From: Giardia intestinalis
Lineage: Eukaryota
Length of the DNA: 64,000 nt
NCBI GenBank assembly: GCA_000002435.2
Contig: CM018792.1
Reading direction: 5' to 3' (one strand)
The notes below the pieces were generated by a model, which saw only the letters and a program-made list of their open reading frames with translations, ran no database searches and was not told where the DNA came from. Shown piece by piece: positions 10,580-57,640 of this stretch. The number at the start of each line of letters is the position of its first letter. Position 1 is the stretch's first letter. The translations under genes were made by a program, and so were the position numbers.

Positions 10580-13500
10580 CTACGCCTTCCCGCGGCAGAG
10601 GAACCACCAGCAAAGGAATCCGACAAGACCACCTACAATAACAATCACAGCAACAGAGATACCGGCTATGGCCCCCGTGCTGAGGCCGCTCTTGTTGACG
10701 CTTCCACCAGTGCCTACTTCTGATTCTAAGCATATGACTGAACTGCCAGATGACGACACACATTGCTTGCATCCAGAGATCTTCTCTGAGCACTTCTTGC
10801 ATAACCCAGCAGTGGTATCGTCACCGTTTTCCTTGTAATACCCAGTGGCACAGGTCTTGCACTTGTCAGCCGCATCTGCAGTCGAGCACGTAGCACAAGT
10901 AGAATGACATTCTGCACAGTTGCCATCACTTGCTGCTAAGCCATTGGCACATGTCTGACACTTACCATTGCCTCCCTGTGCATTACTACACACCTGCTTA
11001 CCAGGCTGTCTATCTGTCTGATAGCAGCCGCCGTCCTTGAGGAAGTAACCCTCATTGCATTTTGTACAGGCCCCACTTGTGATTGTTGCACAGAAGGCTA
11101 CTCGTGAACTGGCCGCACAGTTGCCGTTCAAGGGGGCTTGTTGAGTGTTCTTGCACTTTGAGCAATATGCAGTTCCTCCTATCTGAGCCCCACACTCTGC
11201 GCATCCATCGTTTGTAGAACTCACGCTGCACTGGTCCATGCACGTGCCCCCATTGACAGGAGTATTAGTATCTGTATACTGAAGCATTTTCCCAACAGGA
11301 CAGGCCGTGCACTGATTGTTGGCCGGTCCAACGCACTCAGCGCACTCAGGGTTGCATGCCTTACACTTCTTGTCAGTATCTCCGTAGTATCCGCTGATGG
11401 CTGTGCAGTCAGGTACGCATTGGTTTGTAGGGGTGAGGTAGTCGCCATCATTACATTTAGTGCAGATTTCGTTGTCTGTTTTGGGGTTGTCACAGGTCTT
11501 ACAGTTGGGAGTATTGCACGGCGCTTCTGGGTCCTTGGTGCACTGCTTCGTGTCAGTGTTGATGGTGTAGCCCGGACGGCACGTCTTGCACTGCTGGGCG
11601 TTGCCCTCCACGCAGGTCTCACAGCCCTCGACGTTGCACGGCGCTTCTGGGTCCTTGGTGCACTGCTTCGTGTCAGTGTTGATGGTGTAGCCCGGACGGC
11701 ACGTCTTGCACTGCTGGGCGTTGCCCTCCACGCAGGTCTCACAGCCCTCGACGTTGCACGGCGCTTCTGGGTCCTTGGTGCACTGCTTCGTGTCAGTGTT
11801 GATGGTGTAGCCCGGACGGCACGTCTTGCACTGCTGGGCGTTGCCCTCCACGCAGGTCTCACAGCCCTCGACGTTGCACGGCGCTTCTGGGTCCTTGGTG
11901 CACTGCTTCGTGTCAGTGTTGATGGTGTAGCCCGGACGGCACGTCTTGCACTGCTGGGCGTTGCCCTCCACGCAGGTCTCACAGCCCTCGACGTTGCACG
12001 GCGCTTCTGGGTCCTTGGTGCACTGCTTCGTGTCAGTGTTGATGGTGTAGCCCGGACGGCACGTCTTGCACTGCTGGGCGTTGCCCTCCACGCAGGTCTC
12101 ACAGCCCTCGACGTTGCACGGCGCTTCTGGGTCCTTGGTGCACTGCTTCGTGTCAGTGTTGATGGTGTAGCCCGGACGGCACGTCTTGCACTGCTGGGCG
12201 TTGCCCTCCACGCAGGTCTCACAGCCCTCGACGTTGCACGGCGCTTCTGGGTCCTTGGTGCACTGCTTCGTGTCAGTGTTGATGGTGTAGCCCGGACGGC
12301 ACGTCTTGCACTGCTGGGCGTTGCCCTCCACGCAGGTCTCACAGCCCTCGACGTTGCACGGCGCTTCTGGGTCCTTGGTGCACTGCTTCGTGTCAGTGTT
12401 GATGGTGTAGCCCGGACGGCACGTCTTGCACTGCTGGGCGTTGCCCTCCACGCAGGTCTCACAGCCCTCGACGTTGCACGGCGCTTCTGGGTCCTTGGTG
12501 CACTGCTTCGTGTCAGTGTTGATGGTGTAGCCCGGACGGCACGTCTTGCACTGCTGGGCGTTGCCCTCCACGCAGGTCTCACAGCCCTCGACGTTGCACG
12601 GCGCTTCTGGGTCCTTGGTGCACTGCTTCGTGTCAGTGTTGATGGTGTAGCCCGGACGGCACGTCTTGCACTGCTGGGCGTTGCCCTCCACGCAGGTCTC
12701 ACAGCCCTCGACGTTGCACGGCGCTTCTGGGTCCTTGGTGCACTGCTTCGTGTCAGTGTTGATGGTGTAGCCCGGACGGCACGTCTTGCACTGCTGGGCG
12801 TTGCCCTCCACGCAGGTCTCACAGCCCTCGACGTTGCACGGCGCTTCTGGGTCCTTGGTGCACTGCTTCGTGTCAGTGTTGATGGTGTAGCCCGGACGGC
12901 ACGTCTTGCACTGCTGGGCGTTGCCCTCCACGCAGGTCTCACAGCCCTCGACGTTGCACGGCGCTTCTGGGTCCTTGGTGCACTGCTTCGTGTCAGTGTT
13001 GATGGTGTAGCCCGGACGGCACGTCTTGCACTGCTGGGCGTTGCCCTCCACGCAGGTCTCACAGCCCTCGACGTTGCACGGCGCTTCTGGGTCCTTGGTG
13101 CACTGCTTCGTGTCAGTGTTGATGGTGTAGCCCGGACGGCACGTCTTGCACTGCTGGGCGTTGCCCTCCACGCAGGTCTCACAGCCCTCGACGTTGCACG
13201 GCGCTTCTGGGTCCTTGGTGCACTGCTTCGTGTCAGTGTTGATGGTGTAGCCCGGACGGCACGTCTTGCACTGCTGGGCGTTGCCCTCCACGCAGGTCTC
13301 ACAGCCCTCGACGTTGCACGGCGCTTCTGGGTCCTTGGTGCACTGCTTCGTGTCAGTGTTGATGGTGTAGCCCGGACGGCACGTCTTGCACTGCTGGGCG
13401 TTGCCCTCCACGCAGGTCTCACAGCCCTCGACGTTGCACGGCGCTTCTGGGTCCTTGGTGCACTGCTTCGTGTCAGTGTTGATGGTGTAGCCCGGACGGC

Positions 13501-14044
13501 ACGTCTTGCACTGCTGGGCGTTGCCCTCCACGCAGGTCTCACAGCCCTCGACGTTGCACGGCGCTTCTGGGTCCTTGGTGCACTGCTTCGTGTCAGTGTT
13601 GATGGTGTAGCCCGGACGGCACGTCTTGCACTGCTGGGCGTTGCCCTCCACGCAGGTCTCACAGCCCTCGACGTTGCACGGCGCTTCTGGGTCCTTGGTG
13701 CACTGCTTCGTGTCAGTGTTGATGGTGTAGCCCGGACGGCACGTCTTGCACTGCTGGGCGTTGCCCTCCACGCAGGTCTCACAGCCCTCGACGTTGCACG
13801 GCGCTTCTGGGTCCTTGGTGCACTGCTTCGTGTCAGTGTTGATGGTGTAGCCCGGACGGCACGTCTTGCACTGCTGGGCGTTGCCCTCCACGCAGGTCTC
13901 ACAGCCCTCGACGTTGCACGGCGCTTCTGGGTCCTTGGTGCACTGCTTCGTGTCAGTGTTGAGGGTGTAGCCCGGGAAGCATGTGTCCTTCCCGCTGTCC
14001 TTTGCCAGCACGGTTGCACAAACTAGGAGAAATCCTACCAACAT
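10580..14044 (-). CDS. Variant-specific surface protein (VSP) with a CRGKA tail and a 20-copy array of a 40-aa cysteine-rich repeat
   Basis: The C-terminus reads …[35 protein letters not shown]. The body is CXXC-rich. The signal-peptide start MLVGFLLVCATVLA is at 14044. The ORF track extends in-frame to 14350, but that extension is not VSP-like. The repeat unit is GYTINTDTKQCTKDPEAPCNVEGCETCVEGNAQQCKTCRP. Confidence 0.8.
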   Translation of the reverse strand: MLVGFLLVCATVLAKDSGKDTCFPGYTLNTDTKQCTKDPEAPCNVEGCETCVEGNAQQCKTCRPGYTINTDTKQCTKDPEAPCNVEGCETCVEGNAQQCKTCRPGYTINTDTKQCTKDPEAPCNVEGCETCVEGNAQQCKTCRPGYTINTDTKQCTKDPEAPCNVEGCETCVEGNAQQCKTCRPGYTINTDTKQCTKDPEAPCNVEGCETCVEGNAQQCKTCRPGYTINTDTKQCTKDPEAPCNVEGCETCVEGNAQQCKTCRPGYTINTDTKQCTKDPEAPCNVEGCETCVEGNAQQCKTCRPGYTINTDTKQCTKDPEAPCNVEGCETCVEGNAQQCKTCRPGYTINTDTKQCTKDPEAPCNVEGCETCVEGNAQQCKTCRPGYTINTDTKQCTKDPEAPCNVEGCETCVEGNAQQCKTCRPGYTINTDTKQCTKDPEAPCNVEGCETCVEGNAQQCKTCRPGYTINTDTKQCTKDPEAPCNVEGCETCVEGNAQQCKTCRPGYTINTDTKQCTKDPEAPCNVEGCETCVEGNAQQCKTCRPGYTINTDTKQCTKDPEAPCNVEGCETCVEGNAQQCKTCRPGYTINTDTKQCTKDPEAPCNVEGCETCVEGNAQQCKTCRPGYTINTDTKQCTKDPEAPCNVEGCETCVEGNAQQCKTCRPGYTINTDTKQCTKDPEAPCNVEGCETCVEGNAQQCKTCRPGYTINTDTKQCTKDPEAPCNVEGCETCVEGNAQQCKTCRPGYTINTDTKQCTKDPEAPCNVEGCETCVEGNAQQCKTCRPGYTINTDTKQCTKDPEAPCNVEGCETCVEGNAQQCKTCRPGYTINTDTKQCTKDPEAPCNTPNCKTCDNPKTDNEICTKCNDGDYLTPTNQCVPDCTAISGYYGDTDKKCKACNPECAECVGPANNQCTACPVGKMLQYTDTNTPVNGGTCMDQCSVSSTNDGCAECGAQIGGTAYCSKCKNTQQAPLNGNCAASSRVAFCATITSGACTKCNEGYFLKDGGCYQTDRQPGKQVCSNAQGGNGKCQTCANGLAASDGNCAECHSTCATCSTADAADKCKTCATGYYKENGDDTTAGLCKKCSEKISGCKQCVSSSGSSVICLESEVGTGGSVNKSGLSTGAIAGISVAVIVIVGGLVGFLCWWFLCRGKA
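11515..13980. repeat. Tandem array of 20 units of 120 bp, 100% identical at the nucleotide level (11521-13920), plus a diverged partial 21st unit. It lies in the coding sequence of the VSP.
   Basis: Every pair of 60-nt sequence lines from 11521 to 13920 is letter-for-letter identical (gcgcttctgggtccttggtgcactgcttcg…gacgttgcacg). The unit at 13921-13980 differs (gagggtgtagcccgggaagc). Confidence 0.95.
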
Positions 14045-15079
14045 TAGCCGGAGTTCGTGTGCTACTGCTTTTTCATCAGGCTGATGTGTTGCCGCGAGCA
14101 GTGAGAGGCAACCGCTCTTGCTCTCTTGATCAGTTGGACTGGAGGAGGACGAGATAGGAGCACACCCATCGGAGGCTAGTTGATAGTGCAGTTCCCCTTG
14201 ACTTCGATAGGAACAGGATCGGTGAGGGCCAGACTCAGATCGCACCTCTCTTGTGGAATGATTGTTCGGGGTGCACTCCTGTACATTGCTGTCGCTGTGC
14301 TCGTTGGCTTCCTCTGCAGGGGCAGGGCGTCCCGGTAGTAAATGCGTCACATTACATCTGCTCGCTCCATGGCCTCTGCGGCGCTATTCTATAAAGCTGC
14401 TGATTAGAGATCTCTAAGCGAATGCTCTCACTGGTCACAAGGGAGCAGAAGATAGACCCCAATAACTTTCGCTTCTCATCTGACCACCACGAGCCTGTTG
14501 CTTTCCATCCACGCCTCTCTTCCCCCGGACCGGCCTCGTGCTCCTTCGTCCAGCGCACCATATTGGAGTACACAGCCTCCTGTGCTGCCTGGCCGCAGGG
14601 TCCGCTGACGTGTGGGCCTACTCGCCCCAGACCCCATTGCAGAGCCAAAGGCTTCAGCGGAGAGACGTGCTCAGGTGCACCGCCAGACAGTGTCTCGGCG
14701 CCCCGTGACCACCTGGATCCATCCCCGGAGGTAACAGATGCAGCTCCGCCCTATGAGGGGGAGAGCGCCGGCGGCTGACTCCGCGACTGCAGTGCTCCAC
14801 ATAGGGACAGCCGGGCCATCCTCTGGCTCTCTGGACGGCAAGCGTGTGCCGAGCAGGAGGCGTCGGTGGACCGTGGCCCTCCACAGACTGGGTAGGTGGC
14901 CAGTGCCGGGGCTCGTCAACCATGGTGAGCTAGCTGATCGGGTGTCTCCCTACCGCATGGCTGGGACGTACAGAATAGCTCTGGACAGAACGCCAGACGC
15001 GAAGGAGCCGTCTCGCACAGGGCAGCCCCACGCTGCGGCCTATTTTCATTTAACCCCGCCTCGCTTGCCCGCGCCCCGG

Positions 15080-16225
15080 ATGGCTCTTTCGTTCCAGTTC
15101 ACCCTGTCGCAGACCCCCGAGGCCCTCACGGCCTGCGTGCGGGTCCCGGCGGGCGTGCCGCCGCGGTCGCTCGAGGTGACGGTCACCGACCTGTGCATCA
15201 CGATCTCTGCGCCGGAGCGCTACGTCTCCAACATAGACCTCTACGACGCCGTCCAGCTGGAGAACGCGCGCTGCAAGTTCAGCGACGGATGCCTCGTGGT
15301 CCACCTCCTGAAGAAGACCCCGGGCACGTGGGCTGCGCTGGAGTTCGACGGGAGCCCCGAGGAGGCCGCGAGGCGCCGCGAGGAGTCCTATGCGCGGTAT
15401 GATGCATACGTCCGGGAGCAGGCCAGGAGGGAGGCAGAGGCCGCGGCGGCCGAGAAGCGCAGGCAGGTCGACGCGGACATCGAGGCCCGCCAGCGGCAGG
15501 CCGGCGAGGAGCGGAGGATGCGCGAGCAGCAGGTCTCGGCTCTGCGGCGGCAGGTGGAGGAGGCCCCGGACGAGGCGCCGAGGCCCCCCGCCGACCCCGA
15601 GGCCCGGATGCCTGCGGTGCGCACAGAGAGCACGGTGGTCATCGAGGCGTCCTTCACGAGGCGCACGGTCGCCGTCCCCGCGCGCGACGGGCGGGACATC
15701 TACGCAGACGGGCAGCTGGGGCCGGTCGCAGGGGCTGCCCAGCATCCGCCCCCCGGCGAGGCCGACGTGAAGGCCGGCGAGCACCGGCGCCGCCTCACCC
15801 CGTACGAGCTCCTCGACCAGGCGAAGAGGCTCGCCACGCGGGGCGTCGGGGCAGACCTCCCGGCCGCCATGGAGCTCGCGGGCCAGGCGAGGGAGCAGCT
15901 TCCCCTGAGCATGGACGCCGTCGTCCTCTACGCCTCCCTCTCCCTGCGCGAGGGGCGCTACGAGCAGGCCCTCGAGGCGACGGACGCAGGCCTCACGGTT
16001 CTGGGCGGAAGGCACCCGCTGCAGCAGAGCAGGGAGCCCCCGGTCTACAGCAGGGAGCTCCGGAGCGCCGTCCACGCGCTGAGGGGGGCAGCCCTGGCGC
16101 AGGCGAAGCGGGTGCGCGAGGCCCTGGCCCACACCGAGGCTGCGCTCGAGCTCACCCCCGACAACGAGGGGCTCGCCCGCGACGCCCACCTGCTCCGGGA
16201 GATCGTCGCCCAGGTGCTCGCGTAG
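15080..16225 (+). CDS. DNAAF4/DYX1C1-like protein with an N-terminal CS (p23/HSP20-like) domain, a charged coiled-coil region and C-terminal TPR repeats
   Basis: From Met 115 of ORF 14738-16225 the sequence reads MALSFQFTLSQTPEALTACVRVPAGV…LEVTVTDLCITISAPERYVSNIDLYDAVQLENARCKFSDGCLVVHLLKKTPGTWAALEF. This matches the CS-domain pattern of human DYX1C1 (…KGVCVRDTDV…IVFTLYKKEAAMWETL). An R/E/A-rich coiled coil follows, and C-terminal TPR-like helices read …AVVLYASLSLREGRYEQALEATDAGL… The upstream 114 codons are R/P-rich and not protein-like. An AT-rich initiator (tattttcatttaa) lies about 35 nt upstream of the ATG. Confidence 0.6.
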   Translation: MALSFQFTLSQTPEALTACVRVPAGVPPRSLEVTVTDLCITISAPERYVSNIDLYDAVQLENARCKFSDGCLVVHLLKKTPGTWAALEFDGSPEEAARRREESYARYDAYVREQARREAEAAAAEKRRQVDADIEARQRQAGEERRMREQQVSALRRQVEEAPDEAPRPPADPEARMPAVRTESTVVIEASFTRRTVAVPARDGRDIYADGQLGPVAGAAQHPPPGEADVKAGEHRRRLTPYELLDQAKRLATRGVGADLPAAMELAGQAREQLPLSMDAVVLYASLSLREGRYEQALEATDAGLTVLGGRHPLQQSREPPVYSRELRSAVHALRGAALAQAKRVREALAHTEAALELTPDNEGLARDAHLLREIVAQVLA

Positions 16226-16265
16226 CCGCCCGTCTGTAAACTAGCCGGCCTTAAAAATCGCGGCC

Positions 16266-17525
16266 ATGGACGGCGCCCCGCACCTGGTCTTCCACGCGCC
16301 CGTTGGAGAGGCAGACGCGACGACGGCCCTCACCAAGCAGCTGGCAAACGCGTTCCCGGGCCGGCTCTCTGTCGACGTGACCTCCTCCCTCTCGAGGCCG
16401 CTTCCCGAGCGCGCCCTGCTTGTCGTCTCTGCGGGGCTGGAGACCCTCAGCCAGGCAGACGTCCAGGCGATCAAGGGCCACAGGCGCTCCGGCGGCCCCG
16501 TGCTCGTCATGGTCGCCGACGCGGCCCGGACCCGCTTTTCCGAGCACGCCGAGAAGATGCTCAACGAGCTGGGGATCTCGGGCATCAGGGCAGACCCCGT
16601 GATATCCTCCGTCCACACCCCCGGCCTGTACCACCCGACGCACCTGCTCCTCACCGCCTCGTCCTTCGTCTGCTCCTCGCTGCTCACCAAGCTGGAGAAG
16701 GCGCGCCCCGCGGCGGAGGCCCGCGACGTCTCCGTCGTCTACCCCTGCGGGACGTCGTTCGCAGTCAACCCGAGCCTGGCGGCCGTCGTGCTCTCGTCGG
16801 GCGACAGCGCGTTCCCGCCGAACCAGCCCGTCGCGGCCGCCCTGCGCGAGGACGGCGCCGCGAGGCTCGGCCGGTGCGTGGTGCTCGGCACGTCGCGGAT
16901 GTTCGCCGACGGCTTCCTCGCGAGGTTCGACAACCGCGCCCTCTTCGAGCTGGTCCTCCAGTACCTCCTGCGCCACCCGGACGCGCCCGCCCTCGCCTCT
17001 GCCGCAAACGTGAACGAGTCCCTCCTGGGAGGGGCCGAGGAGTCCGTTTACATCCCAGACACGCAGACGGTCGCGCTGAACATGCGCGCCTGCCTGCACG
17101 CCCCCGACGCGCTTCCAGACGACTTCACAGACCTCCTGGACACCGTCCCGTCGGCGAACCCGAGCATCCTGCCGCAGGTCTCGGCCCTGTACGAGAAGAT
17201 GGGATTCAGCAGGTCGGAGCCCACGCTGAAGCTGGTGAACCCCAGCTTTGAGAAGCCCACGCCGCCCCTCATCCCGGCGGTCCACTTCCCCGTCCTCCCC
17301 GACCCGCCCGGGGCGCCCCTGCTGGAGCTGTTCGACCTGGACACAGAGCTGGCCAGCGAGCAGACGCGCCTGAACAAGCTCGCGTCCAAGTGCACAAACA
17401 GCGACGTCGAGTTCTTCCTCCGGCAGGCCGGGGACCTCCTGAACATAGGCGGCTCGCCGAAGGAGATCCTGTACCACGTGCTTGTCTCCACGGTCAACTT
17501 CAAGAAGGGCATGGCCGGCAAGTGA
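16266..17525 (+). CDS. IFT52: Intraflagellar transport protein 52 (IFT-B core)
   Basis: Several blocks match animal IFT52 as recalled. VLVMVADAARTRFSEHAEKMLNELGI matches VFVMLGEGGESRFDTNINFLLEEYGI. VYPCGTSFAVNPSLAAVVLSSGDS…GRCVVLGTSRMFADGFL matches VYPFGATLSVMKPAVAVLSTGS…GKLAVLGSCHMFSDQYL. PLLELFDLDTELASEQTRLNKLASKCTNSDVEFFLRQAGDLLNI matches PPLELFDLDETFSSEKARLAQITNKCTEEDLEFYVRKCGDILGV. Confidence 0.85.
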   Translation: MDGAPHLVFHAPVGEADATTALTKQLANAFPGRLSVDVTSSLSRPLPERALLVVSAGLETLSQADVQAIKGHRRSGGPVLVMVADAARTRFSEHAEKMLNELGISGIRADPVISSVHTPGLYHPTHLLLTASSFVCSSLLTKLEKARPAAEARDVSVVYPCGTSFAVNPSLAAVVLSSGDSAFPPNQPVAAALREDGAARLGRCVVLGTSRMFADGFLARFDNRALFELVLQYLLRHPDAPALASAANVNESLLGGAEESVYIPDTQTVALNMRACLHAPDALPDDFTDLLDTVPSANPSILPQVSALYEKMGFSRSEPTLKLVNPSFEKPTPPLIPAVHFPVLPDPPGAPLLELFDLDTELASEQTRLNKLASKCTNSDVEFFLRQAGDLLNIGGSPKEILYHVLVSTVNFKKGMAGK

Positions 17526-17540
17526 ATGGTGCCCGCGGGC

Positions 17541-17915
17541 TCAGTAGTAGTAGACGGCATACAGGTTGGCGATGCAGATGATGTCGTCGTTCTGGTACAC
17601 GTGGCGGAGCTCCGCGTCGGCGTCGGCGTCGAAGTAGCACTTGTTCTCGCTCCGGATGCCCTGGCCCTTCTGGCCGATGATGGTCACGGAGACGCAGATC
17701 TTGAACCTGCTGTCCGAGATGAGCCGCACCTTGGCCCGGATCTCGTCTGCGAGCTCCTTGGACACCTTGGCGCAGTCCTCGGAGTCGTACTGCCGCCCGC
17801 GCAGCCGCCTCTCCACGATCTGCTTCATCTCCTCGTGGGCCTTCTGCCGGTCGAACCTTTTGGCCGGCGCCGAGGGACGCGCAAGCTCCGTGATCTCTGT
17901 TCGGATGGTATCCAT
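17541..17915 (-). CDS. Tctex-1 family dynein light chain (DYNLT)
   Basis: The C-terminal half reads FKICVSVTIIGQKGQGIRSENKCYFDADADAELRHVYQNDDIICIANLYAVYYY. This matches the Tctex1 signature [51 protein letters not shown]. It is 124 aa long. It is convergent with IFT52, with the two stops 15 nt apart. Confidence 0.75.
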   Translation of the reverse strand: MDTIRTEITELARPSAPAKRFDRQKAHEEMKQIVERRLRGRQYDSEDCAKVSKELADEIRAKVRLISDSRFKICVSVTIIGQKGQGIRSENKCYFDADADAELRHVYQNDDIICIANLYAVYYY

Positions 17916-17948
17916 TTTTTGATTATAAATTATGTCAGGATTGAGTAG

Positions 17949-31274: not shown

Positions 31275-33038
31275 TCAAGCTCGAGCGCATGATCCACGTG
31301 CTCGGGGCCTGGATTGTGGCTGAGCCGTGCTTCCTGGCCGCAACTTAAACACATTGAGAACAGATTCTATTTGTATGGTGTCATTTCCCCCCAGCTTGAA
31401 TGTTTGAAGGATGATCAGAGGAGAAACAGCTATTCCCAGTCTACTTCTGAAGAACCACAGTAGCTCTTTTGAGCTTACAATTTTCCTGTTATGGAAAGCC
31501 TCAGAAAGAAGAACCCTCATGGACTCCCCGCGGGCGCGTAACTTCTTTATCACATCCTGGACAAATACACTACACTCTGTGTGTTGGGCTTGTATCTCCA
31601 TTTGTGCCTCAGTCGTAATGAACCCATTGTCCTTGTTACACTGTTTTTCGCTAAAACTTGAGAGTGGCAGTGAGTTGAGAGCAGTAGTTGTGTACCTCTG
31701 GTCGTCACCTGTCTGAAGACACGATAGGGAACAGCTGGATTTGGCTACAGAGCTAGTGGAAGCGGGCCTCACGCACTGTTTTGGTAGCGGCTTGTCCGCA
31801 GAGAAAGCTTGATGCGATGAATTGTGTGGTACGTTCATATAATTTGGACTGTATGCTCCAGTGAATGATGCCTTCATATCCACTTCTCCTGTAGGCACAC
31901 TTATGGTTGCTCTCCTGCCATGCTGCGGAGGCTTTAAAGCACACTCAACAACAGGTATCAAGGGCCGCTTACAATACATTGCCGCGGTGCTGCAGGGACG
32001 ATTAGGAAGTTGAAGAGGAACTAGATATTCCTGACAAGACAAGAGCTTCAGGAACCCTTGATAAGACATTAGCTGATGAGTTGAACCGTCGTTGGCACGT
32101 TCAGACACCACCCTGAAAATATCTCTTGTCAGCTCTTCGCTTACCTCTATATCGGTAAGGTCCCTCACCGCTGAAACAAAATCTGCTATAGTCAGATAGT
32201 TGTATCTTCGTCTATCTATTCTTCCAAAAAGAGCACGCGGCGAAGAAATGGCTGTAAATCTCTCAGCAAGATACAGCATGACTAACGACACATTTCCATC
32301 GAGCTCTGTATTGTATGCCAATCTGTGCTCGGTCCCATCGTGTACACCTTCTTCTCTAAATTTGATCTTCATGTCCGAAGCAGACTCATCAAATGTGATA
32401 GTCTCTTCTGCTGCCACTGGGGTATTAGAAGATTCTAAGGGTAACTCGGGCTGATGCTGAAGCAAGATGTTAAACTCGTGAATGGACATATGCTGGATCC
32501 GAGGATCACTCTTGAGTTGTTTCCAGAGGTTACTCCAGGCAGAGTTTGAAAGCATGATACCGCACCGTGTACTTAGAATATTACGTAGATGATGCTCATA
32601 AAGGAATTCTGCTCCATGGGTACACACCTTGTAGAACTTATAGACCGAGCACCCCAAGCTATGCATATACCGGACCAGTGCGCGCCTAACTGTGTCGACT
32701 GTAACTGCTGTTTTATCCTCCTGAGAGACAACAACTGATTCTATGCCATCCTCTAAGAAGTGCTTGAAAAGGTTATAATCCATCATGTTTCTTCGCCTGC
32801 TATTAACAATACAACCCGACTCGTTGCAATCTACATATCTACTGAACCAGCTACTCACCTGCTCCTCGGTGACAACCCCGCGAGGCAGAGAAAACCGGTC
32901 ACAGTACTGAATGAAATCGTGCACGGAAACATACCCGTCTCCATCCATATCAACTGCTTGAAACAGTCGAAAAGTGGAGCTTGTCTGTTCAGTCAGTTTT
33001 TGCCTCAGAAATACGAGCAGCGTATCAGATGACTGCAT
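31275..33038 (-). CDS. EF-hand domain protein, 587 aa
   Basis: A canonical EF-hand loop DMDGDGYVSVHDF sits near the N-terminus, and there is a second EF-like segment …LTIADFVSAVRDL… The ORF is clean. Confidence 0.55.
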   Translation of the reverse strand: MQSSDTLLVFLRQKLTEQTSSTFRLFQAVDMDGDGYVSVHDFIQYCDRFSLPRGVVTEEQVSSWFSRYVDCNESGCIVNSRRRNMMDYNLFKHFLEDGIESVVVSQEDKTAVTVDTVRRALVRYMHSLGCSVYKFYKVCTHGAEFLYEHHLRNILSTRCGIMLSNSAWSNLWKQLKSDPRIQHMSIHEFNILLQHQPELPLESSNTPVAAEETITFDESASDMKIKFREEGVHDGTEHRLAYNTELDGNVSLVMLYLAERFTAISSPRALFGRIDRRRYNYLTIADFVSAVRDLTDIEVSEELTRDIFRVVSERANDGSTHQLMSYQGFLKLLSCQEYLVPLQLPNRPCSTAAMYCKRPLIPVVECALKPPQHGRRATISVPTGEVDMKASFTGAYSPNYMNVPHNSSHQAFSADKPLPKQCVRPASTSSVAKSSCSLSCLQTGDDQRYTTTALNSLPLSSFSEKQCNKDNGFITTEAQMEIQAQHTECSVFVQDVIKKLRARGESMRVLLSEAFHNRKIVSSKELLWFFRSRLGIAVSPLIILQTFKLGGNDTIQIESVLNVFKLRPGSTAQPQSRPRARGSCARA

Positions 33039-33221
33039 TAAATCCTAGATCTTAAGATCTTAGATTAAAATTGAAATTTCGCATCAAATTTTAACGAGCC
33101 CGAGGCCTTAGCACAAGTGCGGCTATGCGTATATAACTGTGCTTATACATTGCTTAGAGTATTCTTTCTGCATGATTCCTGAAACAGAGTAAATTACTTA
33201 AAACCTAAAAAACAGTCCCCC

Positions 33222-33917
33222 ATGACAACACCACAGCAGCCCCCAAACGACAGCTGGCTTCAAGATAGTTATAATTCGTCGGAGGACTCGATGGACTATC
33301 CAATAGTCAATACAGACCTCCTAGTTAACGTGCCGCTAGACTTTATCAGAGATACCTTTAATCACGCAGACCTTCCAGAGCTCTTCACCAACTTCGAAGC
33401 CGTGTTACAGGGGCTAGAGTTTTCCTACGAGGCTGACACAGAGAAACTTGAGGACGCGAGCCTTCAGGTGGAGATCGGACTGCTCTACGGTCTGCTCCAT
33501 GCGCGCTTTGTTACCACTGATCAAGGTTTAGCAAAGCTTAGCCGGATGTTTCTGGCTGGAAAGTTTGGTATGTGTCCAAGAGAAGGCTGCAAAGACTGTC
33601 CCTTACTTCCCGTTGGTGCCAGTAACGTGCCAGGGGTGTCTCCGTTGGGAGGATACTGTGTCTATTGCAAGGATGTCTACCTTCCGTTATCGCATGACGT
33701 TCTGAAGGGAGAGCTTGTAGACGGATCCTTCTATGGCAGTAGCTTCCCTCAGGTCTTTCTTTCTAGATACCCCAAGCTAGAGTCTAAGCTCATCGCCAGT
33801 CTAGACGCCTCAACAAACTCAGATAGTCCGACATACTACAAAGATATTGACGCAAAGCTCTCCAAAGAGAACATGCACCTCTTCGGCTTCAAGATCAATT
33901 GGGGGCTTGTAGAATAG
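33222..33917 (+). CDS. Casein kinase II regulatory (beta) subunit
   Basis: SWLQDSY…VNVPLDFIRDTFNHADL matches the CK2beta N-terminus ([32 protein letters not shown]). GLLYGLLHARFVTTDQGLAKLSRMFLAGKFGMCPREGCKDCPLLPVGASNVPGVSPLGGYCVYCKDVYLPLS…DGSFYGSSFPQVFL matches [70 protein letters not shown]…DGAYFGTGFPHMLF, including the 4-Cys zinc ribbon. Confidence 0.9.
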   Translation: MTTPQQPPNDSWLQDSYNSSEDSMDYPIVNTDLLVNVPLDFIRDTFNHADLPELFTNFEAVLQGLEFSYEADTEKLEDASLQVEIGLLYGLLHARFVTTDQGLAKLSRMFLAGKFGMCPREGCKDCPLLPVGASNVPGVSPLGGYCVYCKDVYLPLSHDVLKGELVDGSFYGSSFPQVFLSRYPKLESKLIASLDASTNSDSPTYYKDIDAKLSKENMHLFGFKINWGLVE

Positions 33918-38729: not shown

Positions 38730-39698
38730 CTAGTGCGGAGAAAGTTGAAGAAAGAGCTCAGCCAGCAGACGACATAGCTGCAAGGGACTTGAAACGGTTG
38801 TCTTGCTCTTTGCATGTAAACTGGCGAGAATTCGAAGCATACTAGCCCGCACCACGTCATTAATTTCTGTTTCGCTGTTAAGGGCATAGCGAAACATCGC
38901 GTTGTAGATATCGTCGTAATTGTAACCTTCGTTGAGCTGGTTATCTATAAGCATCCATCCGTCGTCAAACTTGCCGGATGTCAGGAGCTTCATAACCTGA
39001 TCAATAACCTTAACATCTATAGTGCTGAGAGCCTTCTGAACACCGGCCACTGTAATTACCTTGTTGTTAGCGTCTGCAACCAGCTGCAGGCTGTTGAGGC
39101 ATGAGCGAACATCGTTCCCAGAGATAGAAATAAGCTCCTTGAGTGCCTCGGTGTCGCTCTTAACCCCTTCCTTTTCGCAGATCTCCTGTAGATATTTGAT
39201 AAGTTCTGCTTGCGTAGCAGGCATGATGCGGAGAACACAACACCGCGATTGGACAGGCTCGATAACCTTCGAGATGTTGTTGCATGCGAGACAGAAGCGC
39301 GTGGAGCCAGTCTCGTCATCCATAATGCGGCGAAGGACTTGCTGGGCGGCCTCTGTCATTGCATCGCATTCGTCGAGGAAAACGAGCTTCTGGATACCCG
39401 CGGGAAGAGTTACTTGCTTTTGGGCGAAGGTCTTGACCTTGGCCCGGATATCGCTGACATTACGCTCGTCCGACGCGTTAAGCTCGAGGAAGGCCACACT
39501 GCGATGTGCACCAAGCATCTGGTTGGCCAGACAAAGAGCGATCGTCGTCTTCCCGAGCCCAGGCCCGCCGGCGAAAAGGATGTTCGGGAGGTTCCCCTGT
39601 GCGGCGAAGTAGCGAAGGCGCGCGAGGATCTCCGGGTTCCCGATGAGCCCGTCGAGGGTGCGCGGGCGGTACCGCTCGATGAATGGGAGTGCCTTCAT
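38730..39698 (-). CDS. Replication factor C small subunit (RFC2/RFC4-like AAA+ clamp-loader subunit)
   Basis: The motifs are FIERYRPRTLDGLIGN (RFC box II), GGPGLGKTT (Walker A), LELNASDERNVSDIRAKVKTFAQ, VFLDECDAMT (Walker B DEcD), QQVLRRIMDDETGSTRFCLACN, and EPVQSRCCVLR (the SRC arginine finger). Confidence 0.9.
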   Translation of the reverse strand: MKALPFIERYRPRTLDGLIGNPEILARLRYFAAQGNLPNILFAGGPGLGKTTIALCLANQMLGAHRSVAFLELNASDERNVSDIRAKVKTFAQKQVTLPAGIQKLVFLDECDAMTEAAQQVLRRIMDDETGSTRFCLACNNISKVIEPVQSRCCVLRIMPATQAELIKYLQEICEKEGVKSDTEALKELISISGNDVRSCLNSLQLVADANNKVITVAGVQKALSTIDVKVIDQVMKLLTSGKFDDGWMLIDNQLNEGYNYDDIYNAMFRYALNSETEINDVVRASMLRILASLHAKSKTTVSSPLQLCRLLAELFLQLSPH

Positions 39699-39761
39699 CG
39701 GCCACTCTTTTCAAACAATAAACTGCCTACTCCGGCCTCTGGTGAGGTCCCGCGCGGGCGC

Positions 39762-39844
39762 GCCAGTTTGGCCGAGTGGTTAAGGCGGGGGACTTAAGAT
39801 CCTCTGATCGCAAGATCGCGTGGGTTCGAACCCCACAGCTGGCA
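39762..39844 (+). tRNA. tRNA-Leu (anticodon UAA)
   Basis: 83 nt. The acceptor stem is GCCAGTT/AGCTGGC. The D-arm is GCCGAGTGGTtAAGGC. The anticodon stem is GGGGA/TCCTC with loop CTTAAGA. A long variable arm has a GATC/GATC stem. The T-arm is GTGGG-TTCGAAC-CCCAC. The discriminator is A. A tttt run (a Pol III terminator) follows at 39845-39848. Confidence 0.85.
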
Positions 39845-39848
39845 TTTT

Positions 39849-40508
39849 ATGCTCCACCGTGCGGCGCTCTGCCGCCCTGATCACACCCTCTTCTGGACCG
39901 TCTGCGCGCCCGTCGGTGCAGGACTCGTTTTCCTCTCTCTAGCTGCGCGCAGCATAATCTTGCAGATTCCGTACGCCAGGGTCAGAGCACTCTCTCTGGA
40001 CTCGAGGTCTACGGCTCTGCTGCGCATACATCTGCGCCACGGCGCTACTGTGCTGCTGTGGTGTGATTCAGCAGAGCTTTTGGCGAAAGAGGTTACCGAA
40101 GCTAGCAAAGTAGGAGGCGATGCAAGTCAAACGGAAGACGGCGTCATGTTCTCGTGCCATGTTTCTACGGGGTCTTACGTGCTTCATTCAGCAGTTGTGA
40201 CAGTAGGGCATCTCCACGTGATAGTGCATACATCAGATATTTTGCTGAAATGCCCTGTGGCAGAAATCATCGAAGTCCGCGAAGCAGGGCATCCATGCGT
40301 TATTGACCTGTGCTGCATCTCTAAAAGACTTATCCTTGAGTTTGATAAGAGCGAGGATGCGAACAAATGTCGTACCCTTTTACTTGGCTACATCTTGCTG
40401 AGGACCCTTAAAATAGATGTGAAAGATCAGATAAAACAATTTTACGTGGCTTCCATAGCTCAACCATCAATGCTGTGGGCGGGAAGCCTTTTTCACAATC
40501 TTCAATAA
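39849..40508 (+). CDS. Hypothetical protein, possibly PH/GRAM-like. The start is uncertain.
   Basis: A 219-aa ORF beginning 5 nt after the tRNA. The N-terminal 30 aa look non-coding, and an internal Met is the likelier start. Confidence 0.35.
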   Translation: MLHRAALCRPDHTLFWTVCAPVGAGLVFLSLAARSIILQIPYARVRALSLDSRSTALLRIHLRHGATVLLWCDSAELLAKEVTEASKVGGDASQTEDGVMFSCHVSTGSYVLHSAVVTVGHLHVIVHTSDILLKCPVAEIIEVREAGHPCVIDLCCISKRLILEFDKSEDANKCRTLLLGYILLRTLKIDVKDQIKQFYVASIAQPSMLWAGSLFHNLQ

Positions 40509-55078: not shown

Positions 55079-57559
55079 ATGCGCCAAGAGAACAAGGCTC
55101 ACCGCGCATCTAGTACAGCAAAGAGTAAGGGAAAGGTTCCTGCCAAAGTTCGAGGGGCTTCAGTGAAAAAGACCGACGGAAAAAGCATTCGCCGGAAACT
55201 GTCGAAAGAGGAGGCTAGGCTTCGCCAGCAATCTCAGAATAAGGCTAAAAACCTAACGAAAAGCATGCCGAAGTATATTGCGCTCCTAGCTCTCAGTGCT
55301 GGCATTGATGCTCGCATTGTCTGGGAACAGCTTTCCACAGCCACTAAGTGTGTCAAGGTCCGACTTCCAGATATAGCCACACAGTCTGCTGTCCATGTGT
55401 TTCAAGGTCAGGGCTATATCCCAATTTTTCCTGACATGCCTCACACCGAACTAGGCCTCATGGATTGCATGGACTCTTTAATGCATGCAGACTTTTTCGT
55501 TTTCATTGTTCATGCAGAAGGGGTGAGCGATATGGGCCGTTTAGTCATACAAGCGGCCCATGCACTCCATTTCAATCAACCTCAGGTTGTTCTAGGTCTC
55601 AGCACAAGTACAGCTGTATCTCACGCCCTTGACAAAGCATTTACAGCAACATTTGAAATATTGGGGTGTAATACCGAAACCTTCACAGATCTAGGGATGC
55701 GGCCTGTGAGTGGTAACGCTCCACCTTTATCTGGAATATCAAATCGACAGAAAAAATTCATCAGGGAGCTTTTCCATCCAGATGCACATGTGATTGCGCC
55801 GTATGACGTTTCACGACACGGTGATTCACTGATGCGATACCTTAGCAACACCGTCGTCTCTGTCGAGCAAACCCGACCTGGATGGATAAGCAAGCGCCCG
55901 GTTGTTCCAATAATTGGATATGAGTTCAAGGAGATAGACTCAGAGACACAGGCTGTCCGGTTCGATGTAGTAGGATGGCTCTCTGGTCAACTCCCACTTA
56001 CTGCAAACCAAAATGCTTATTTACAATCGGTCGGGGCATGCAAGATTCTCAATATCGATACAATAAACGTTCTAAATCCTGCATTCCTTTGTGACGATAA
56101 GTATGCTATCTACGTTCGATCATTTCAGCACTTACAAACAAGAAGCAAGGATGCTGAGGGTTGTGAGCAAAGGAGTGGAGTAGCAGCGAAGGAAACGGTT
56201 ATACAGACCATAATGGAGGCCATGCGTGCAGAAGAGGCGTCTGATAGCTGTGATACATTTGACGCGACTGTTCAAGCGCTTGCCAATCAAGAGGAAACCG
56301 ACACAGTCGATGAAGAGAAGATTCAGATGGGCAGTGACTATGATAGGAAGCTTCAATATCAAAGTGACGAGCCTTGGGAGTATCCTGACGAGTTGGACAT
56401 CCACCCTGCATTCGAACTCCGGACGCTTCTTAAGGGCTGGCGAGGTCTCAAGAGCATGAGGACTTCGCCCTGGAGGATTGCAAGTGAGGAGGTTCCTGAT
56501 GGCTTTGAGGGTCTACACCACATTCATCAACCGGTACAGTTTTACGACTATGTAAGAAAACAACAAATTATGGGTGGACTTACAGCACCTGGGAATTTTC
56601 TTCGCATAACATTGGAGTTTATTTCATCCAGTCATAGCCACCTTATTTCTGCAGGAATTTCAGATGAATTTGCACCAAATCTTGAGGATATATACAGTCA
56701 GTATAGAGAGTTTCTGAATACATTGATGGAAAATGTTACTAGAAACAAGACCGTTGGTCTATGCGGCCTTTACTCCTGCGAAAACAAGGACTCAATAGCT
56801 CATGCTACAATGAGTCTCTACGGTCTTCCTAGTACGTTTGGTGTTCCAGATGCTCCACCAATCAAACCGGGAGAAGAACAACCCCTCACACATGAGCATC
56901 CGTTTATCTTATATGTTGGATTTCGCAGGCTCTACACTGTTCCCCTCCCGAGCCAACCTCTTACACCGACGCGGAGCAAGTTGCAGCGCTATTACCATGG
57001 TCAGGAGTCGAGCATCACCCTTTCTTTCGTGTGCCCCATGTTCGTAGAATATCAAAACCTACCCCCAGTTCTTGCTTTTATCAATAAGAGTATCTCACCC
57101 GGATACTGTAGCATCAAGGAAGACTTTAAGTTTTGTGGCTCTGGCAAGCTCACAAGCCTTGACACCTCCTTCATTACGTTGCAGCGGATAGTCCTCGCTG
57201 GAACGCCCTTTCATATATCGAAGCATCGTGTTGTTGTAAGACACATGTTCTTTTATCCTGAGGATGTTAAGTACTTTGCTCCAGTAGATCTTTATACCGA
57301 AAGCAATGTTCGGGGCCGTATTACGCAATCCATTGGGATGAAGGGATACTTCAAAGCATTCTTTGATGGGAAGGTTGATCACAGCATGGCTATCAAACTG
57401 GCTGTCTACCGGCAGGCGTTCCCGACGCTTGTCAGCCTGCGCTTCGACGCGGGCGACATGCTCCTCTTCGAGCCTGTGGCGGAGTTCTTCGTGAGGAGGA
57501 TCGCGGCGACGCAGGAGGAGCTCGCTCGCCTCGCCGCGGCCCCAGGTGGGGACGAGTGA
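55079..57559 (+). CDS. TSR1: Pre-rRNA processing / 40S biogenesis protein TSR1 (Bms1/Tsr1 family, lacking a GTPase P-loop)
   Basis: The C-terminal block HRVVVRHMFFYPEDVKYFAPVDLYTESNVRGRITQSIGMKGYFKAFFDGKVDHSMAIKLAVYRQAFP matches the Tsr1/Bms1 C-terminal domain (…[44 protein letters not shown]…SLYKRVFP). The N-terminus is K/R-rich. There is no GxxGxGKS motif. The length, 826 aa, fits Tsr1. Confidence 0.7.
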   Translation: MRQENKAHRASSTAKSKGKVPAKVRGASVKKTDGKSIRRKLSKEEARLRQQSQNKAKNLTKSMPKYIALLALSAGIDARIVWEQLSTATKCVKVRLPDIATQSAVHVFQGQGYIPIFPDMPHTELGLMDCMDSLMHADFFVFIVHAEGVSDMGRLVIQAAHALHFNQPQVVLGLSTSTAVSHALDKAFTATFEILGCNTETFTDLGMRPVSGNAPPLSGISNRQKKFIRELFHPDAHVIAPYDVSRHGDSLMRYLSNTVVSVEQTRPGWISKRPVVPIIGYEFKEIDSETQAVRFDVVGWLSGQLPLTANQNAYLQSVGACKILNIDTINVLNPAFLCDDKYAIYVRSFQHLQTRSKDAEGCEQRSGVAAKETVIQTIMEAMRAEEASDSCDTFDATVQALANQEETDTVDEEKIQMGSDYDRKLQYQSDEPWEYPDELDIHPAFELRTLLKGWRGLKSMRTSPWRIASEEVPDGFEGLHHIHQPVQFYDYVRKQQIMGGLTAPGNFLRITLEFISSSHSHLISAGISDEFAPNLEDIYSQYREFLNTLMENVTRNKTVGLCGLYSCENKDSIAHATMSLYGLPSTFGVPDAPPIKPGEEQPLTHEHPFILYVGFRRLYTVPLPSQPLTPTRSKLQRYYHGQESSITLSFVCPMFVEYQNLPPVLAFINKSISPGYCSIKEDFKFCGSGKLTSLDTSFITLQRIVLAGTPFHISKHRVVVRHMFFYPEDVKYFAPVDLYTESNVRGRITQSIGMKGYFKAFFDGKVDHSMAIKLAVYRQAFPTLVSLRFDAGDMLLFEPVAEFFVRRIAATQEELARLAAAPGGDE

Positions 57560-57569
57560 ACGAAAGATG

Positions 57570-57640
57570 TGCGCATGCCGGGGCTCGAACCCGGAACGAA
57601 AGCTTGGGAAACTCTCATGATACCCTTTCACCACATGCGC
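57570..57640 (-). tRNA. tRNA-Gly (anticodon CCC)
   Basis: 71 nt on the minus strand: GCGCATG-TG-GTGA-AAGGGTA-TCAT-G-AGAGT-TTCCCAA-GCTTT-CGTT-CCGGG-TTCGAGC-CCCGG-CATGCGC-A. The 7-bp acceptor stem is perfect. The T-loop is TTCGAGC. The anticodon loop has U33, CCC at 34-36 and A37. The 3' end lies 11 nt from the TSR1 stop. Confidence 0.75.

Follow-up and report, generated by a model that had tools for sequence, protein, structure and literature searches.

The 64,000-nt stretch of contig CM018792.1 of Giardia intestinalis WB (assemblage A; GenBank assembly GCA_000002435.2), called the window below, contains three adjacent and intact genes related to the cilium: a DNAAF4-like gene (gene 1), IFT52 (gene 2) and a Tctex-family dynein light chain gene (gene 3). 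Coordinates of these and other features are given in Table 1. The three open reading frames (ORFs) and both spacer lengths reported in the first-pass annotation were exact in the ORF list, and the translations of the trio were identical to KAE8304379-81. Gene 3 is encoded on the opposite strand and is therefore convergent with IFT52, which the first-pass annotation did not mention. That annotation suggested that the adjacency of the trio could allow co-regulation through shared short promoters or read-through.

Table 1. Features of the trio locus and of the surrounding window (positions are those of the window).
Feature	Position	Strand	Length	Remarks
DNAAF4-like gene (gene 1)	15080-16225	+	381 aa	GL50803_0060815; KAE8304379.1
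IFT52 (gene 2)	16266-17525	+	419 aa	GL50803_0040995
Tctex-family light chain gene (gene 3)	17541-17915	-	124 aa	
Spacer between genes 1 and 2	16226-16265		40 bp	
Spacer between genes 2 and 3	17526-17540		15 bp	
TATTTTCATTTAA	15041-15053	+		AT-rich, 27-39 bp upstream of the DNAAF4-like ATG, in an otherwise GC-rich region
TGTAAAC	16235-16241	+		poly(A)-signal-like, 9 bp past the DNAAF4-like stop
CTTAAAAATC	16250-16259	+		AT-rich, initiator-like, 6 bp ahead of the IFT52 ATG
AGTGAAT	17521-17527	+		overlaps the IFT52 stop codon
Tctex upstream spacer	17916-17948	-	33 bp	24% GC; separates the Tctex ATG from the stop codon of the 822-aa gene
Segmental duplication	14235-17888		~3.65 kb	845 bp upstream, DNAAF4-like gene, IFT52, 3' 348 nt of Tctex
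TPR segment with EEVD-clamp positions	15800-16219			in gene 1
Extended ORF of gene 1	14738-16225		495 aa	spurious extension
Antisense ORF	15050-16189	-	379 aa	spurious
Antisense ORF	16251-17477	-	408 aa	spurious
VSP gene	10580-14350	-		upstream of the trio
VSP repeat array	11514-13975			120-bp (40-aa) unit, 20.5 copies, 99% identity
EF-hand and CK2beta genes	31275-33917			precede IFT52 in G. muris
RFC-subunit gene	38730-39698	-		
GC-rich patch	39250-39850			overlaps the 5' end of the RFC-subunit gene
tRNA-Leu(TAA)	39762-39844			
GC-rich patch	57500-57640			
tRNA-Gly(CCC)	57569-57640			

By its domain content, gene 2 is unambiguously IFT52, a core subunit of intraflagellar transport complex B (IFT-B), and the original call was confirmed. 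All three Pfam domains of the family scored above their curated cut-offs: IFT52_GIFT (1.1e-22), IFT52_central (5e-14) and Itf52_C (2.9e-10), that is, the GIFT, central and C-terminal IFT46-binding domains, with 80.8 (PF23355), 52.8 (PF23352) and 40.1 (PF21178) bits, respectively. The three domains are common to IFT52 of Chlamydomonas (BLD1) and Caenorhabditis elegans (OSM-6). The best match in PDB was 8bd7_B, "Osm-6-like protein" (5.2e-42, residues 45-413), followed by chains named IFT52. GL50803_0040995 is annotated as "IFT complex B", and tagged IFT52 was reported at the flagella of Giardia (PMC11895090). In contrast to known IFT52 genes, that of WB is present in two nearly identical copies with a G+C content at third codon positions (GC3) of 93%.

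Gene 3 encodes a Tctex-family protein (Pfam Tctex-1, PF03645; 5.9e-22, 78.2 bits against a cut-off of 22.8, residues 27-119). The first-pass annotation was therefore right about the family, but its name "Tctex1" had to be replaced. The PDB matches were the Chlamydomonas outer-arm LC2 (1.5e-19), an inner-arm Tctex2b-type chain (3.3e-15) and DYNLT2B (2.9e-14), whereas DYNLT1/Tctex1 chains were matched at only 6e-4 to 7.6e-4. Since gene 3 is nearest to LC2/DYNLT2B and far from DYNLT1, it is termed Tctex2/LC2-type here. It shares the Tctex-1 Pfam fold with the Tctex2-type chains (Chlamydomonas outer dynein arm LC2, DYNLT2B/TCTEX1D2), which were also its best sequence matches; Tctex1/DYNLT1 is not its closest relative.

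Gene 1, for which the existing annotation says no more than "hypothetical" or "CS-domain" protein, is, judging from its sequence relatives, the orthologue of DNAAF4/DYX1C1. Its start is the first conserved ATG inside a longer ORF (Table 1). The protein is composed of a CS domain (approximately aa 1-88), a coiled coil (aa 93-161), a DYX region (approximately aa 178-208, RTESTVVIEASFTRRTVAVPARDGRD) and a TPR domain (aa 241-380). DYX1C1 consists of an N-terminal CS domain, a coiled coil, the DYX domain and C-terminal TPRs, in that order (PMC5608425). The DYX domain was defined in PMC3641089 and is essential in Chlamydomonas, in whose pf23 mutant part of it is deleted (PMC5608425). Searches of Pfam and PDB with the single protein yielded TPR matches below cut-off only (TPR_1/TPR_2, E 2e-4, under the curated cut-off) and were otherwise uninformative. 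A profile built from six Giardia sequences, however, recovered 298 proteins at E<=1e-3 among 1.84 billion representatives. The nearest of them were fornicate orthologues (Dysnectes, Spironucleus); after these came proteins matched from the N-terminus across the CS domain and coiled coil, several over the full length. Twenty non-Giardia matches were looked up, and the four with an informative source name were all DYX1C1/DNAAF4: "Dynein axonemal assembly factor 4" in Volvox, "dyslexia susceptibility 1 candidate 1" in Paratrimastix, and "dyslexia susceptibility 1 candidate gene 1 protein" in two annotations of the Joint Genome Institute (JGI).

An alignment of 18 family members was collinear end to end. 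A word-indexed homologue search with this alignment returned mostly generic TPR proteins and few family members. Comparison of the Giardia profile with ten non-diplomonad DYX1C1-type proteins by hhalign gave a probability of 99.9% and E 9.1e-34 over 358 columns. The family motif was P-x-x-R...(S/F)FT-x-R-x-x-x-x-PAR(D/E), with the Giardia version SFTRRTVAVPARDGRD; at the DYX position the named DYX1C1 homologues had "FTPRxFxTPARES", which is the FTxRxxxxPARE form of this motif. The DYX domain was judged from the motif only. The AlphaFold2 model calculated from the 18-sequence alignment had a mean predicted local distance difference test (pLDDT) score of 81 and replaced a model from the six Giardia sequences (pLDDT 58). 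It comprised a CS beta-sandwich (residues 1-88), a disordered linker with the DYX motif in it, and a TPR domain of three repeats; residues 93-161 formed one long helix (pLDDT >90), aligned to the charged helical region of DYX1C1-type proteins. The first-pass call had rested on architecture alone and was upheld by homology, namely by the named profile matches, the collinear hhalign result and the DYX motif.

Human DNAAF4 and Chlamydomonas PF23 share with the Giardia protein the same four domains in the same order and a match over the full length of the profile. The Giardia protein is shorter, with a short linker and a CS domain diverged below Pfam detection, and the TPR positions of the EEVD clamp look substituted. 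At these positions (Table 1) "ELLDQAKRLA" and "LYAS" are found in Giardia versus "WLKxKGDxxF" and "NRA" in other DYX1C1-type proteins, and binding of Hsp70/Hsp90 tails may be altered or lost. The likely function of the protein is that of a co-chaperone in the cytoplasmic preassembly of dynein arms, which is new for a gene carrying a hypothetical or CS-domain annotation. In the literature, no paper tying Giardia to DNAAF4 was found, and none was found for the locus tag GL50803_60815.

Assemblage B (L002-L004) and a lower-GC G. intestinalis-like lineage, "X" (L005-L007), both have the trio in identical orientations and followed by the same genes downstream. Beyond the G. intestinalis species complex, it was not seen in G. 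muris, L014, L017, L018 or Spironucleus. Gene order in G. muris was EF-hand gene, CK2beta, tRNA-Thr, IFT52, Tctex, a 679-aa gene and a zinc-finger gene. IFT52 and Tctex are convergent there, with a 0-bp spacer, and form part of a collinear block of five genes, some of them non-ciliary, such as the REI1-like zinc-finger gene. The DNAAF4-like gene of G. muris is located on a different chromosome beside kinases; the kinase context, apart from IFT52, was also found in L018, a relative of G. muris, and in L017, a more distant lineage. In WB, CK2beta and the EF-hand gene are located away from IFT52, at 31-34 kb of the window, and the breakpoint therefore lies directly upstream of IFT52, where DNAAF4 now sits. 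No homology, even to the upstream sequence of assemblage B, was detected upstream of the DNAAF4-like ATG; in the 845 bp preceding gene 1, no trace was found of the kinase gene that lay upstream ancestrally, of CK2beta or of the sequence found upstream in assemblage B.

In a giardiid-like contig (L014, 8001-9920; Logan SRR31929897), IFT52 and the orthologous Tctex gene (51% and 65% identical to WB, respectively) were neighbours encoded on one strand, separated by 264 bp and flanked by unrelated genes. In Spironucleus salmonicida, IFT52 had no Tctex neighbour, no pair of the trio was linked, and the DNAAF4-like gene was approximately 560 kb from IFT52. The IFT52-Tctex pair is thus older than the split of G. 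intestinalis and G. muris, and the trio is young. With respect to the synteny check proposed by the first-pass annotation, the trio was recovered in assemblage B and lineage X and the IFT52-Tctex pair in G. muris and L014, but the trio extended no deeper.

Two further features of these loci were observed. The tRNA-Thr(TGT) gene of G. muris (L012, 7896-7968) lies exactly between CK2beta and IFT52, in the slot of the G. intestinalis DNAAF4-like gene, so that the synteny breakpoint between the two species falls at a tRNA gene. The DNAAF4-like gene of Spironucleus is present in two identical copies (SS50377_22619 and SS50377_22628; L015/L016, CM035318.1, approximately 587-620 kb), situated in an inverted duplication that repeats several neighbour genes as well.

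The Giardia poly(A) signal is AGTRAAY-like, and the Giardia initiator is AT-rich. TGTAAAC and CTTAAAAATC, which we take to fit this poly(A) signal and initiator, were both kept in A, B and X, though the spacer between genes 1 and 2 is 40, 64 and 71 bp long, respectively, and were retained in A despite the flooding of the region with G and C. AGTGAAT at the end of IFT52 fits the AGTRAAY consensus. Upstream of gene 1, TATTTTCATTTAA is a candidate initiator or promoter. The 33-bp AT-rich spacer ahead of the Tctex gene, in which the ATAATTTATAATCAAAAAATG context was kept in A, B and X, is a candidate for the gene's own promoter region. According to a study based on transcription start site sequencing (TSS-seq) and RNA-seq, a transcription region lies close to the proposed start of the re-annotated ORFs, IFT52 included (PMC3792122). 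The conserved motifs of the 40-bp spacer and this statement make a shared promoter or obligatory read-through unlikely; promoter sharing by Tctex is excluded by its convergence with IFT52, and the 3' ends of these two genes would overlap because of the convergent 15-bp spacer. The proposal of co-regulation via a shared promoter or read-through was consequently not sustained.

An operon was also considered and rejected, given the third gene on the opposite strand, TGTAAAC and CTTAAAAATC inside the 40-bp spacer and the transcription region near the start of IFT52. The trio resembles eukaryotic clusters and operons (C. elegans operons, kinetoplastid polycistrons, yeast GAL/DAL) in the adjacency of related genes and the very short spacers, but differs in having a convergent member, separate signals and conservation within the species complex only. 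Moreover, Giardia is not known to have a trans-splicing system.

The trio lies in a segmental duplication (Table 1). In the second WB copy, GL50803_00d60815 is accompanied by another IFT52 gene and by a Tctex fragment of 95 aa. Locus tags with a "d" mark duplicated genes in the WB assembly of 2020, where duplications account for 6.9% of the genome (PMC7000408). Logan short-read contigs of the second copy (L008-L011, L019-L021) were 99.1-99.8% identical to the window, with ends at 14235 and 17863/17888. Past the 17888 junction, the sequence adjoining the second copy is a NEK/ankyrin kinase locus richer in AT. The 64-kb window itself contained the block only once. In strain P15 of assemblage E, a full-length and a 95-aa Tctex copy were found, protein-identical in their overlap and with E-specific residues common to both. 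The P15 IFT52 has the same GC-driven amino acid composition, and the A and E proteins differ from each other. Paralogues were thus closer within a lineage than orthologues between lineages, which is the pattern typical of concerted evolution.

The probability of the trio arising by chance was simulated with approximately 4,963 Giardia genes, of which 150, 200 or 300 were taken as cilium-related. At least one run of three was obtained with probabilities of 0.12, 0.26 and 0.65, respectively; 4-18 adjacent pairs of cilium genes and 0.14-1.1 triples were expected. Because of these probabilities, and because the category was picked after the fact, the trio is statistically unremarkable.

In our reading, to which we assign a probability of roughly 0.7, the adjacency of the three genes reflects the history of a very compact genome, is probably neutral and is not a regulatory unit, each gene having its own signals. 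IFT52 and Tctex would have been neighbours before the G. intestinalis/G. muris split. A later rearrangement, with its breakpoint just upstream of IFT52, would have placed DNAAF4 beside it. Every gene would have kept a short AT-rich initiator and a poly(A) signal for itself and is probably transcribed separately. In the A (and E) lineage, the 3.65-kb block with DNAAF4, IFT52 and most of Tctex was duplicated.

The main alternative is that the trio is a functional cluster kept by selection, with co-regulation in flagellar assembly arising from overlapping 3' ends, read-through or a common chromatin environment. Each of the three is a genuine flagellar gene, yet linkage of DNAAF4 is absent from G. 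muris, L018, L017 and Spironucleus, and Spironucleus has no linked pair. IFT52 and Tctex are adjacent in G. muris and in the deeper relative with flanks and orientation changed, but in G. muris they are merely part of the five-gene collinear block with the REI1-like gene. Overlapping 3' ends are forced by the convergent 15-bp spacer, whereas the separate conserved motifs of the 40-bp spacer and the convergence of Tctex speak against a shared promoter, and 0.14-1.1 triples are expected by chance. Several points nevertheless weigh against our reading. The number of cilium genes in the simulation is our own approximation, and the argument for independent transcription, which is probable, draws on motifs and one published statement. 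None of the three sampled G. intestinalis lineages has lost the trio, and the duplication took in DNAAF4 and IFT52 intact, with the spacer between them. The persistence of the IFT52-Tctex adjacency in L014, despite changed flanks and an inverted Tctex, hints at some pressure to keep this pair together, and dosage or chromatin-level co-regulation of the trio may exist. On balance, the claim of a co-regulated functional cluster is weakly supported, and we consider a selected cluster unlikely.

Were gene 1 another CS/TPR co-chaperone of the Sgt1, NudC or p23 type, only two cilium genes would be adjacent. Pfam does not detect the CS domain in the Giardia protein itself (it was matched by 10 of the 18 aligned family members), the TPR match stays below the curated cut-off, and the usual EEVD-clamp positions look diverged in the alignment. 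In Foldseek searches, the CS part of the model matched the CS domains of Sgt1, Shq1 and NudC with target-normalised template modelling (TM) scores of 0.7-0.8, p23 being matched about equally, and the TPR part (residues 241-380), which is of the Hsp70/Hsp90-binding type, matched SGT, CHIP, HOP TPR2A and RPAP3 at 0.78-0.85. A fold match alone cannot tell DNAAF4 from other CS proteins, but domain order, the DYX motif and sequence relationship can. Sgt1 has the order TPR-CS-SGS, the reverse of DYX1C1, and NudC and p23 have no TPR domain. Gene 1 has its domains in the order of DYX1C1 (PMC5608425) and contains the DYX motif, the hhalign match is full-length, and every name retrieved for non-diplomonad matches was DYX1C1/DNAAF4. 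The six-sequence Giardia profile matched no Sgt1, NudC or p23 chain of PDB at E<=10, with a weak Hsp20 match. The comparison with DNAAF4, NudC and Sgt1 suggested in the first-pass annotation thus did not place the gene with Sgt1 or NudC. In a TSS-seq study of 2013, gene 1 in its over-extended form was reported as a new "P23-like" gene (PMC3792122). The assignment to Sgt1, NudC or p23 was rejected on the basis of domain order, the DYX motif, hhalign and the names of the matches, and a co-chaperone of another family is highly improbable.

The duplicated block is markedly enriched in G and C. The GC content rose from approximately 45% in the flanks to 62-73% over the trio, and the GC-rich and duplicated segments shared their boundaries in both copies. 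In assemblage A, GC3 was 0.94 for the DNAAF4-like gene, 0.93 for IFT52 and 0.93 for Tctex, versus 0.46-0.50 in flanking genes. The corresponding values were 0.44, 0.47 and 0.54 (flanking genes 0.46-0.49) in assemblage B and 0.36, 0.39 and 0.38 (flanking genes 0.34-0.37) in lineage X. Sites with G/C in A and A/T in B outnumbered the reverse by 293:18 in the DNAAF4-like gene, 268:5 in IFT52 and 58:2 in Tctex (619:25 over the trio), compared with 218:233 and 134:122 in flanking genes. The share of Gly, Ala, Arg and Pro in the DNAAF4-like protein rose from 26% to 40%. In Tctex, the 17 codons upstream of 17863 had a GC3 of 0.71 versus 0.96 in the remaining codons; as the true junction is at 17888, just 9 Tctex codons are outside the duplication. 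GC-richness creates long spurious ORFs in other frames (Table 1), and the first WB annotation probably overlooked or mis-annotated gene 1 and IFT52 for this reason.

GC-biased gene conversion between the copies is the most likely cause of this shift: the two copies would have been homogenised and the block pushed to about 70% GC (93% GC3). A point against this part of our reading is that another mutational bias associated with recombination might also account for the shift. Introgression of the block, or its transfer, from an unsampled GC-rich lineage of Giardia would agree with the lower A-B protein identity of the DNAAF4-like gene (75% versus 88-89% in flanking genes) and with the somewhat raised GC3 of IFT52 and Tctex in G. 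muris (0.66 and 0.80), as would codon selection for high expression. However, the A-B differences are almost purely of the A/T-to-G/C type and do not represent general divergence; the boundaries of GC and duplication coincide in both copies; and the paralogues of A are 99.1-99.8% identical in DNA and the Tctex copies of E are protein-identical, while A and E differ. Neither explanation is at all probable, and selection on codon usage was rejected because the 845 bp ahead of gene 1, which are non-coding, are GC-rich as well (60-68% GC).

GC-biased gene conversion was suggested for Giardia rDNA only (PMC10123126), and no report of it at the DNAAF4-IFT52-Tctex locus was found in the literature. 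As in rDNA, the copies are approximately 99% identical, and the strong lineage-specific AT-to-GC shift is limited to the repeat and also touches non-coding DNA and amino acid composition. The block differs from the rDNA case in that ordinary protein-coding genes in two copies, with no tandem array, are concerned; conversion is here the presumed mechanism.

The trio is flanked upstream by a variant-specific surface protein (VSP) gene with a tandem repeat and downstream by a gene for an 822-aa protein without a Pfam match, followed by the REI1-like C2H2 zinc-finger gene. Farther downstream, an RFC subunit, a CHD-type SNF2 ATPase, kinases, Tsr1/Bms1 and an ankyrin protein are encoded. A Pfam scan of 19 larger ORFs of the window revealed no further evidently ciliary gene. 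The VSP gene (Pfam VSP, 1.6e-97) encodes a CRGKA tail; its ORF start, a GTG at 14350, is probably over-extended, since the signal-peptide-like MLVGFLLVCATVLA is found approximately 100 codons downstream of the GTG. Two small GC-rich patches elsewhere in the window adjoin tRNA genes (Table 1).

Giardia is tetraploid and binucleate, and its recombination or sex and the near absence of allelic heterozygosity are long-standing puzzles. The trio should not count as evidence for operon-like regulation in Giardia, as it mostly records rearrangement history; a modest gain is the assignment of a hypothetical gene to DNAAF4 and the correction of "Tctex1" to Tctex2/LC2-type. The duplicated, GC-saturated block may matter more, as a clean candidate for GC-biased conversion in an organism in which recombination is debated. 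We tentatively suggest, at slightly less than even odds, that the 3.65-kb block is a natural reporter of ongoing ectopic GC-biased gene conversion in Giardia. With a similar degree of reserve, its two dispersed copies may have been held about 99% identical since before the A/E split, with third codon positions pushed from roughly 45-55% to 93% GC and the proteins remodelled towards Gly, Ala, Arg and Pro. If this were general for the duplicated 6.9% of the WB genome, it would provide a sequence-level read-out of recombination.

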